A stretch of DNA of 64,000 bases from Candidatus Rhabdochlamydia sp. (lineage in GTDB: Bacteria > Chlamydiota > Chlamydiia > Chlamydiales > Rhabdochlamydiaceae). Numbering within the stretch: position 1 is the stretch's first letter; each line of letters begins with the position of its first letter. The stretch spans positions 3,535 to 67,534 of the forward strand of contig JBOFFP010000005.1 of NCBI GenBank assembly GCA_051648645.1, read 5' to 3'. Under the pieces are notes generated by a model. That model was not told the origin of the DNA and did not search any database. It saw nothing but the letters and a program-made list of their open reading frames with translations. Shown here piece after piece: positions 59,049-59,345 of this stretch. The translations under genes and the position numbers were made by a program.

Positions 59049-59345
59049 ATGACCTATTCACTATCCAATTCTTTATCAAGCATTTCTTCAAGCATGCAAA
59101 CCATCGGGAACCATATCTCCGATAGATTAAAGCCAAAAAACCTCTTGAAAGTAGGTTGTGTAGTAGCACCTATATTTGCAGCTCTTCAAATGGCAAGCAA
59201 TGTTCCAGGAGCTGATGCAGGACTTATCTGCTTTACCGGGTGTATGGCAGTATGCTTAGGAACAGCAACTGGAACAGGCGGAGCATTTGTTCCTTTTTGT
59301 ACTGCAACATGCCTTAAGTGGTGTGCTAACCCAATAACCCCATAG
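59049..59345 (+). CDS. Small Cys-rich peptide precursor 4 (CX3CX3C-X14-CX3CX3C core)
   Basis: AAAGGAGAACCT-ATG; Ser-rich N-region, hydrophobic stretch, ADA-G site, core GLICFTGCMAVCLGTATGTGGAFVPFCTATCLKWCANPITP. Confidence 0.8.
   Translation: MTYSLSNSLSSISSSMQTIGNHISDRLKPKNLLKVGCVVAPIFAALQMASNVPGADAGLICFTGCMAVCLGTATGTGGAFVPFCTATCLKWCANPITP

Follow-up and report, generated by a model that had tools for sequence, protein, structure and literature searches.

Within a 64,000-nucleotide (nt) stretch of the Candidatus Rhabdochlamydia sp. contig JBOFFP010000005.1 (assembly GCA_051648645.1; hereafter 'the window', with a G+C content of 35.8%), a forward-strand gene encodes a cysteine-rich precursor of 98 amino acids (aa), and a second gene, starting 115 nt downstream of it, encodes a 145-aa membrane protein, here termed its partner. 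An earlier reading made from the sequence alone (the sequence-only reading) had described the precursor as a fourth, unlinked copy of a design found in an array of three genes elsewhere in the window. Neither part of that description holds. The precursor belongs to a family of its own, with members across environmental chlamydiae and no detectable homology to the array, and its core co-varies with the linked downstream membrane-protein gene as an allelic cassette. This two-gene cassette is a finding beyond the earlier reading.

The precursor gene

The precursor consists of four consecutive segments, MTYSLSNSLSSISSSMQTIGNHISDRLKPKNLLK, VGCVVAPIFAALQMA, SNVPGADA, and, after the predicted cleavage site, GLICFTGCMAVCLGTATGTGGAFVPFCTATCLKWCANPITP (the core). 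All the elements that the sequence-only reading had listed are present: a ribosome-binding site, a Ser-rich N-region, a hydrophobic stretch, an ADA↓G site, a six-Cys core with a Gly/Thr turn, and a downstream hairpin (Table 1). We are almost certain that this is a real gene. Syntenic orthologues occur in five close genomes, four close homologues (74–86% identity) occupy the same site between mfd and the gene for the 145-aa membrane protein, and comparison with more distant strains gives the leader codons a synonymous divergence (dS) of 0.17–0.27 and a nonsynonymous divergence (dN) of 0.03–0.10; dN being well below dS, the leader codons are under purifying selection. Some gene callers include an upstream start (ATG 59007), which would yield a 112-aa form. 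We rejected this form on its substitution pattern and on the position of the ribosome-binding site: in the fourteen codons upstream of 59049, all four substitutions between the window and a fish-gut strain change the amino acid, which makes ATG 59049 the likely start; the leader itself, by contrast, has a dS of about 0.2 and a dN of 0.04–0.08.

Fish-gut metatranscriptome contigs (about 93% identity) span the peptide and partner genes in one piece; they document presence in RNA libraries, contig depth being no measure of expression. In the fish-gut strain, the segment corresponding to 58759–58945, between mfd and the peptide gene, is swapped for unrelated sequence. Runs X16, X17, and X19 contain a Rhabdochlamydia about 93% identical over 58700–60100, at word depths in the thousands.

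A two-gene allelic cassette

The window and loci L001 and L002 are 98.5% identical over the left flank (6.1 kb) and 97.9–99.0% identical over the right flank (1.2 kb), and 59.5% identical from 59226 to about 59900. The drop starts at codon 60, two codons past the predicted cleavage site; the block of low identity takes in the core, the spacer, and all of the 145-aa gene, tapering off where the conserved basic C-tail of its product is encoded. Between the window and L001, dS and dN are 0.026 and 0.008 in the leader and 0.58 and 0.47 in the core; between the window and L002, they are 0.73 and 0.32 in the partner gene. Since synonymous divergence is also high, the block records an exchange of old alleles and not point mutations accumulated in a recent burst. 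Of three pairs within class B (defined below), two have a core dN/dS ratio (omega) of 1.0–1.9 and one has 0.41, values that are imprecise at a length of thirty-six codons.

About a dozen samples underlie the allele pattern, and they fall into two classes. Class A, with an X14 turn in the core, comprises the window, L052, and contigs of runs X1–X5, the close ones among them having identical cores. Class B, with an X11 turn, comprises L001, L002/L003, L053, and runs X7, X8, and X23; contigs of these three runs match the window exactly as far as 59225, after which they read LLCLHFCMVGC. Without exception, a core of one class is accompanied by a partner of that class—A with A and B with B. Core classes also cut across leader clades, indicating that leaders and cores have recombined: the core in the window is 68% identical to that of family member P0058 (leaders, 36%) and 51–54% identical to those of P0003-5 (leaders, 98%).

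A peptide gene with a co-oriented downstream partner is present in the window, L001, L002, L004 (the tick-associated strain T3358), L006, L011, L052, and L053. At L011, the pair lies at a different chromosomal site, between msrA and the ATP/ADP translocase region. L006 has one peptide gene followed by tandem partner genes, the first class-B-like (2267–2713) and the second, 3' of it, T3358-like (2793–3242). In addition, a lone partner paralogue lies 3' of nifS-nifU-oprB and has no peptide gene. We lean clearly towards a functional coupling of peptide and partner.

The precursor gene of the window is followed by a hairpin at 59372–59418 and then UUCUUUUUU (−25.6 kcal/mol, z = −4.0; none of 200 shuffles is equally stable). 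It is absent from a simple terminator scan because its loop exceeds 8 nt. This terminator is a diverged copy of the one that ends the partner gene, a duplication suggesting either that a former copy of the partner gene was deleted or that the class A cassette recombined in at the terminator. A terminator-like stem with a T-run also lies inside the coding sequence, at 59271–59293 across the codons of the GTGGAFVPF turn, and is probably coincidental.

The partner membrane protein

The partner has three or four hydrophobic segments, the second of which is only moderately hydrophobic on the Kyte-Doolittle scale. Under the positive-inside rule, its basic loop (YYFGYLKRGTKFLT) and both termini, including a C-tail with seven Lys/Arg residues, would be cytoplasmic; hence four transmembrane (TM) segments are predicted. 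Between classes, the cytoplasmic loop and tail are 82–88% identical, and the predicted periplasmic loops together with TM2 and TM3 are 38–46% identical. The variable face of the partner would thus be the side on which a Sec-exported peptide would be found.

The leader and its predicted cleavage site

Eight of the first fifteen residues of the precursor are Ser. The hydrophobic stretch runs from V35 to A49 (15 aa), includes a seventh cysteine (C37), and is followed by the cleavage-site motif P53-G-A-D-A57↓G58, giving a leader of 57 aa (family median 55, range 45–107). Across sixty family sequences, the n-region (median 35 aa) varies in sequence and is alike in composition: Ser makes up 14.4% of it, versus 7.0% of the proteins in the window, and Asp plus Glu 4.4% versus 10.8%. 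Its last eight residues are net positive in fifty-five of the sixty members, and the h-region that follows is an uncharged stretch with a median length of 13 aa.

The c-region conforms to the pattern P(−5)-x-[A/V](−3)-[D/E](−2)-[A/G](−1)↓G(+1). Position −3 is occupied by A (46 sequences), V (9), T (2), S (1), or G (1); position −1 by A in 48 of 60 and G in 10; position +1 by G in 57; position −5 by P in 35; and position −2 by D or E in 45. Val is accepted at −3 and never at −1, an asymmetry in line with what is known of signal peptidase I specificity and poorly explained by a mere turn. Almost all of the sixty members follow the −3/−1/+1 pattern, amid residues that vary. The leader shares with Sec signal peptides a basic end of the n-region, an h-region within the range of about 7–15 aa, small residues at −3 and −1, and a helix breaker at −4 to −6; at 57 aa, it departs from their usual length of 18–30 aa with a short n-region. 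A lipoprotein signal was considered and rejected: there is no lipobox (L-[AS]-[GA]-C), the site reads A-D-A↓G-L-I-C, and four-Cys family members have no Cys near the site.

The core peptide

The core has the form C61-X3-C65-X3-C69-X14-C84-X3-C88-X3-C92, with a GTATGTGG turn. When the window is translated in all six frames, this six-Cys pattern appears a single time, and it appears in none of 200 Markov shuffles; the twin CX3C motif occurs five times, against a shuffle mean of 0.19. Family cores have a median length of 37 aa (range 35–45) and the consensus GF..F..CM..C.AATGGAF.PAC.AAC....A.PTP. Their net charge is 0 in forty-six of sixty sequences (+1 in the window), and they are uniformly hydrophobic, with a grand average of hydropathicity (GRAVY) of about +1.0 to +1.3 (family median +1.28). 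A neutral core of this hydropathicity fits the suggestion of the sequence-only reading that the peptide is possibly membrane-active.

The same reading had proposed a helical hairpin stapled by disulfides, and the prediction is now backed by three lines of evidence: an AlphaFold model, four invariant cysteines, and the joint gain and loss of the outer pair. Modelled alone, the 41-aa core forms a helix at residues 2–19, a three-residue turn, and a second helix at 23–35 (mean predicted local distance difference test score [pLDDT] 81.7); AlphaFold may over-extend helix 1 across the GTATGT segment in the X14 class. For the whole precursor (35 aligned sequences), helices are predicted at 57–72 and 80–92 (pLDDT 64–78), with a disordered leader. 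Alignments A5 and A6 show no variation at C65, C69, C84, and C88; G78 is likewise invariant, and G58, P82, and P95 are invariant or nearly so. The Cys spacing is thus conserved among homologues as far as the inner twin CX3C is concerned (all sixty sequences); the turn (X11 or X14) and the outer pair vary.

The outer cysteines, C61 and C92, are both present in seventeen sequences and both absent from forty-three; no sequence has a single one. Both were lost in the T3358 and L006 orthologues, inside the six-Cys Rhabdochlamydia clade, and both were gained in P0033, a member of the four-Cys 'APTP' group, with its first cysteine shifted by one residue. Because of this loss and this gain, their co-occurrence does not reflect a single phylogenetic event, and it is the pattern predicted by nested disulfides (C69–C84, C65–C88, and C61–C92) in antiparallel helices. 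A Foldseek search with the core model found no significant neighbour in the PDB (nothing below E = 5). Taken together, Sec export, cleavage, and folding into a stapled hairpin are likely.

Distribution of the family

The family is undescribed and comprises about sixty distinct sequences of 82–117 aa, collected by two profile searches and from orthologues read from DNA; one 148-aa member is probably over-called. A profile search of 1.8 billion cluster representatives returned thirty-five clusters, and a second search with a 37-sequence alignment returned thirty-six proteins. The organism names attached to members are exclusively Candidatus Rhabdochlamydia, Rhabdochlamydiaceae bacterium, and Parachlamydiales bacterium; locus L011, which holds a member, carries an ATP/ADP translocase gene. 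Many four-Cys members are nearly identical in the core. One profile-search match, P0023 (1996 aa), was discarded as spurious: it consists of repeated eukaryotic reverse-transcriptase-like sequence and its score is repeat-inflated.

Neither the peptide nor the partner matches Pfam, PADLOC, or PHROG, and a sequence-profile search of the PDB with the peptide was likewise negative. In NCBIfam, the partner has no match and the peptide has only a sub-threshold one to TIGR04117, 'Cys-Xaa-Xaa-Xaa repeat radical SAM target protein' (E 0.001, 19.1 bits; cut-off 50). Rfam has no match to 58700–60000, and a literature search for this peptide family found nothing. A locus search of species-representative genomes with alignment A1 gave 200 pattern matches, none of them confirmed; the exact 21-mer GTTCCAGGAGCTGATGCAGGA, too short a pattern, matched thirty-six loci in metagenome and genome collections, all by chance (unrelated phyla) and without a peptide by tblastn; and tblastn against plasmids produced only one chance match (Mycolicibacterium). 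What is novel here is a chlamydial micro-protein family without prior description; a stapled helical-hairpin peptide with a membrane partner is of a known kind.

At 4001–4540, locus L015 encodes P0050, a family member of 179 aa whose Ser/Thr-rich N-region is very long. It is surrounded by short open reading frames (ORFs) and by matches to ParG-like, Tad2-like, K1-lyase_C, and C1q-like proteins; the region may be part of a plasmid or phage from a chlamydia-like organism.

The array and other features of the window

The three array genes encode a 33-aa N-region, a hydrophobic stretch, a VEA↓ site, and hydrophilic cores containing CX3C. All three carry AGGAGAAAC(C/T)TATG, a ribosome-binding context shared with the precursor gene, and they follow the same evolutionary pattern, with a dN of 0.08–0.12 in leaders versus 0.5–0.9 in cores. 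The array is flanked by genes for a transketolase and an M23-peptidase membrane protein; it has no partner gene, and no transporter gene is among its flanking genes. An ABC/C39 exporter adjoining the array was considered and dismissed, the 662-aa ORF in question being the transketolase. Homology between the two families was rejected (hhalign probability 3%), and the leaders are not detectably related, in agreement with the sequence-only reading. Its further suggestion was that the design marks a wider class in this genome; within 64 kb, only these four genes fit the design. The shared design is real and may reflect either common descent or a common export route.

Table 1. Features of the precursor locus, its allelic cassette, and the array, in window coordinates.
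Feature	Position	Strand	Details
Promoter candidate, sigma-70-like	58957..58986	+	TGGACA-18-TACAGT; in the 280-bp intergenic region 3' of mfd
Ribosome-binding site	59038..59045	+	AAGGAGAA; read from sequence, 3 nt 5' of ATG
Precursor ORF	59049..59345	+	98 aa; TAG stop at 59343-59345
N-region, aa 1-34	59049..59150	+	Ser-rich; basic end R26, K28, K30, K34
h-region (aa 35-49) and c-region (SNVPGADA, aa 50-57)	59151..59219	+	Predicted signal peptidase I site after A57
Mature core, 41 aa	59220..59342	+	GLICFTGCMAVCLGTATGTGGAFVPFCTATCLKWCANPITP; Cys at 61, 65, 69, 84, 88, 92
Allelic cassette	59226..59900	+	Core codons 60-98, spacer, and partner gene; low identity to L001/L002
Intrinsic terminator hairpin and U-run	59372..59423	+	ACAATCCACAA ... 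TTGTGGATTGT; 3' of precursor gene
Partner gene	59461..59898	+	145-aa membrane protein; 3-4 hydrophobic segments, read as 4 TM
Terminator hairpin and T-run	59884..59920	+	ATCCACAAGTCTTAATTGTGGATTGC; overlaps last partner codons (AIHKS, stop)
Array of three paralogous precursors	47771-48022, 48164-48424, 48890-49162	-	83-90 aa; MLGITNFNPI... leader

The neighbours of the precursor gene are alaS, mfd, a gene for a PNP/UDP-type phosphorylase, a gene for an Inc-like coiled-coil protein, and efp. The candidate promoter is a weak match to the consensus only (one was found, and 2.3 are expected by chance), and the promoter region does not diverge between strains more than its flanks do. The Inc-like protein (60955–62175, forward strand) has a 34-aa N-region, a bilobed hydrophobic domain, and a coiled coil with QALQ(E/A)ENQ(R/H)FQ(T/A)NN repeats; its repeat blocks at about 61296–61395 and 61854–61953 differ between strains that are otherwise 99% identical.

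On the reverse strand, 62260–62604 and 62727–63137 encode two small, hydrophilic paralogues of 114 and 136 aa, neither of which matches a known family. Their N-termini (MTDNNFLCIPQTI and, after an internal Met, MTINNFLNIPPII) resemble the start of the array leader, MLGITNFNPIESI, and the three may share an N-terminal secretion signal. In T3358 and L006, an RHS/YD-repeat protein of roughly 1800 aa occupies the position of these paralogues. A type II toxin–antitoxin-like pair, in which a Gp49/HigB-like toxin gene (PF05973) overlaps an HI1420-type antidote gene (PF21716), is located at 50676–51255 on the reverse strand.

Proposed mechanism and its appraisal

We suggest the following course of events. 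The precursor would be inserted by the Sec machinery with its N-terminus inside, as its basic n-region end, h-region of 13–15 residues, and P-x-A-[DE]-A↓G site imply. Cleavage by signal peptidase I after A57 would leave a very hydrophobic 41-residue peptide on the periplasmic side, where the Dsb system could lock it into a helix-turn-helix by three nested disulfides (C69–C84, C65–C88, and C61–C92). Being greasy and neutral, the peptide would reside in the membrane rather than in solution, and the surface of its hairpin may meet the variable periplasmic and TM face of the partner in a physical interaction. The codons of the mature peptide and the partner gene are exchanged as one cassette, with two old allele classes kept in the population. 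Such a pairing would most plausibly join a membrane-damaging or membrane-targeting peptide, presumed toxic, to a cognate protective or partner protein.

The locus can accordingly be read as a bacteriocin/immunity-like module, in which a peptide exported by Sec and stapled by disulfides would insert into the membrane and be matched by a cognate partner there; we offer this as a tentative interpretation, with a chance somewhat short of even. It draws on gene order, gene sizes, and common strand; on the sharp boundaries of the cassette and the presence of old allele classes in near-identical genomes; and on the extra partner of another class in L006 and the stand-alone partner paralogue, all of which are typical of bacteriocin/immunity loci. 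That the two products are in fact a toxin and its immunity protein is possible, and we hold it with reserve. An unlikely further step would make the pair of peptide and membrane partner a strain-specific module for recognition or killing, with two ancient interchangeable allele classes in an obligate intracellular symbiont. Such a module would settle which co-infecting Rhabdochlamydia strains, or which other symbionts of one arthropod cell, survive or fuse inside an inclusion, and the long N-extension could give the Sec precursor an additional targeting step, for instance type III or regulated release.

Several points weigh against the bacteriocin/immunity-like interpretation. The peptide is neutral, unlike most membrane-active bacteriocins, which are cationic. 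Sec export ends in the periplasm of a diderm cell, with no outer-membrane route or dedicated transporter nearby, and what a bacteriocin would target in an obligate intracellular bacterium does not seem evident. Sec export does not account for the 35-aa N-extension, whose composition is like that of a type III secretion signal. The peptide and partner genes of the window have a terminator between them (class B loci have a spacer of 50 nt and no hairpin). The reading frame of the partner gene is broken at poly-T runs in two independent assemblies, L001 (6625–6650, T7 instead of T6) and L011 (5415–5435, a T9 run), where the frameshifts could be assembly or sequencing errors, slipped-strand phase variation, or decay. 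The number of samples behind the allele pattern is also small. Finally, conservation is good in the four-Cys branch of the family, whose genes at L012 and L014 are followed by unrelated hydrophilic genes; this suits a housekeeping role better than a toxin and points to such a role, in the membrane, for the fold itself. Because L012 and L014 have no membrane partner, the pairing belongs to the Rhabdochlamydia branch and not to the whole family.

Alternative explanations

The leading alternative is a non-toxic membrane micro-subunit, the hairpin being either a permanent small subunit or stabiliser of the four-TM protein or a disulfide-bonded component of the envelope. The dimorphism would then stem not from killing and protection but from two touching parts, on the surface or in the periplasm, adapting to each other under pressure from host or phage. 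Across Parachlamydiales, the scaffold of the family is strongly conserved, many four-Cys cores being nearly identical, and the neutral core, rich in small residues, is typical of tight helix packing; co-variation of the pair would suit any physical interaction. Moreover, R. helvetica lacks OmcA and OmcB (PMC6490308), so small disulfide-bonded envelope peptides are not far-fetched. We nevertheless consider a micro-subunit unlikely: the second partner in L006, which is of another class and has no peptide of its own, and the lone paralogue look more like orphan immunity genes; distant family members have no four-TM neighbour; and omega of the core is about 1–1.9 in two of the three class B pairs.

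A type III secreted miniature Inc is improbable. Here, the Ser-rich N-region would be the secretion signal, and the uncleaved protein would insert into the host inclusion membrane. The first twenty-five residues of the family, with Ser, Thr, Asn, and Pro enriched and Asp and Glu scarce, are in keeping with this, as are the resemblance of the N-region to the N-terminus of the neighbouring Inc-like protein (MIISSIQIAAKSIY) and the position of the locus among fast-evolving Inc-like genes. Inc bilobal domains consist of two TM helices of 15–32 aa separated by a loop that has fewer than 30 residues, none of them charged (PMC3048545); a helix may have only fifteen residues and a loop only two or three, as in CT873 (105 aa; Dehoux et al., PMC3048545). 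The total hydrophobic span of the precursor, about 58 aa, is inside the 40–60 aa of these domains. The hydrophobic segments number three and are short, at 15, 16, and 14 aa; the TGG turn would suit an Inc loop, but the D/E of the first loop would not, given that position −2 is D or E in forty-five of sixty members and Inc loops are reported to be free of charged residues (PMC3048545). Also at odds with a miniature Inc are the A-x-A↓G site with its −3/−1 asymmetry across sixty sequences, which is expected of a peptidase site rather than of a turn, and the h-region, with its median of 13 aa. The co-variation of the outer cysteines, furthermore, points to disulfides and hence to an oxidising compartment rather than the host cytosol.

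Modification as a sactipeptide or as the Cys-repeat target of a radical SAM enzyme, which would cross-link the CX3CX3C cysteines, is disfavoured and highly improbable. Thuricin CD peptides also carry CX3CX3C in a hydrophobic hairpin, and a Trn peptide of thuricin CD is among the Foldseek matches, at an E value (9.2) that is not significant; the TIGR04117 match reaches 19 bits against a cut-off of 50. CxxxCxxC occurs in none of the window's ORFs of at least 150 aa, no radical SAM maturase was found in the related loci examined, and all loci have housekeeping neighbours. The leader has a Sec-type h-region, and, the partner positions themselves being Cys, plain disulfides would suffice.

Equally remote is a miniature conjugative-pilin-like subunit, stored as a hairpin in the inner membrane and polymerised into a fibre: the precursors of F-pilin TraA and VirB2 offer a parallel design (leaders of about 50 aa, compared with the family median of 55, an A-x-A site, and a two-helix hydrophobic mature part), but the mature part of 35–45 aa is about half the size of known pilins (about 64–78 aa, two TM helices), no tra or virB genes flank any locus examined, and no sequence or PDB similarity was found.

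Implications

Small proteins of Chlamydiae are mostly unannotated, and several orthologues of the precursor were found only through the DNA upstream of the partner gene. The family constitutes a defined class of predicted exported micro-proteins in environmental chlamydiae, with a clear predicted site of processing and a simple predicted fold stapled by disulfides, for which Rhabdochlamydia provides a natural two-allele experiment. Given the unusually long leader common to two unrelated peptide families in the window, one may ask by what route chlamydiae direct secreted proteins of very small size.

Should the pair prove to be a toxin/immunity or recognition module, it would be evidence for direct strain competition in an obligate intracellular symbiont, a subject for which hardly any molecular handles exist. 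Should the peptide instead be a structural membrane subunit, it may help to explain how the envelope is stabilised in a lineage without OmcA/OmcB.

Comparison with known systems

The twin CX3C helix-loop-helix is known from mitochondrial small Tim proteins, plant alpha-hairpinins, and CS-alpha/alpha toxins, in which nested disulfides join antiparallel helices and an outer pair can be added or removed with the register kept. Those proteins are soluble, charged, and eukaryotic; the family described here has the same motif but is uncharged, hydrophobic, bacterial, and predicted to be Sec-exported, with no detectable homology to them. The organisation of the cassette recalls the agrD/agrB-agrC, comC/comD, and blp loci, where a hypervariable block with conserved flanks covers the mature peptide and the membrane part of its partner, and where a few old allele classes are common to several lineages. 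It differs from them in that the partner has no kinase or protease domain and in that it resides in an obligate intracellular symbiont.

Sec-dependent class II bacteriocins, such as enterocin P, are unmodified peptides with an ordinary signal peptide, disulfides, and an adjoining immunity gene; they are cationic, have leaders of ordinary length and monoderm producers, and their killing activity has been shown. The precursor has in common with them a Sec-type leader, predicted disulfides, and the neighbouring gene and differs in its neutrality, its long leader, and its diderm background. More generally, it resembles class II bacteriocins as a small peptide with a predicted removable leader and a co-oriented gene for a small membrane protein directly downstream. 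It lacks their double-glycine leader and C39 ABC exporter, a cationic amphiphilic mature peptide, and a match to any bacteriocin/immunity family model: no ABC or C39 gene adjoins the array, and the neighbours of the precursor locus are mfd, a phosphorylase-superfamily gene, and an Inc-like gene.

Thuricin CD, sactipeptides, and TIGR04117 proteins likewise present a hydrophobic hairpin rich in Gly, Ala, and Thr, with CX3CX3C on helix 1 and three cross-links to helix 2. Their links are thioethers made by a co-encoded radical SAM enzyme, whereas in the family the partner positions are Cys, no such enzyme is encoded nearby, and the match to the hidden Markov model is sub-threshold. Chlamydial Incs (PMC3048545) are similarly Chlamydia-specific and similarly combine a 30–40-aa N-region of like composition with 40–60 aa of short hydrophobic helices joined by tight turns. 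Unlike Incs, the family has a peptidase-type A-x-A↓G site, an acidic −2 residue, a short h-region, and co-varying Cys pairs, and it has no cytosolic domain.

A closer counterpart is gallocin A of Streptococcus gallolyticus. In gallocin A, an ABC transporter removes a double-glycine leader of 23 aa, and the bacteriocin consists of two peptides with one disulfide each, made by a Gram-positive bacterium; the precursor described here has a 57-aa Sec-type A-x-A leader, a single peptide, three predicted disulfides (most of the family would have two), an obligate intracellular diderm as its producer, no transporter nearby, and no sequence similarity to gallocin. Gallocin A-type class IIb bacteriocins are membrane-permeabilising peptides of 42–60 aa with few charges, predicted to form antiparallel helical hairpins; their intramolecular disulfide is needed for activity, and a small membrane immunity gene (GIP) lies directly downstream (PMC10100652). 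Gallocin A with GIP is thus the nearest described analogue of the peptide/partner pair.

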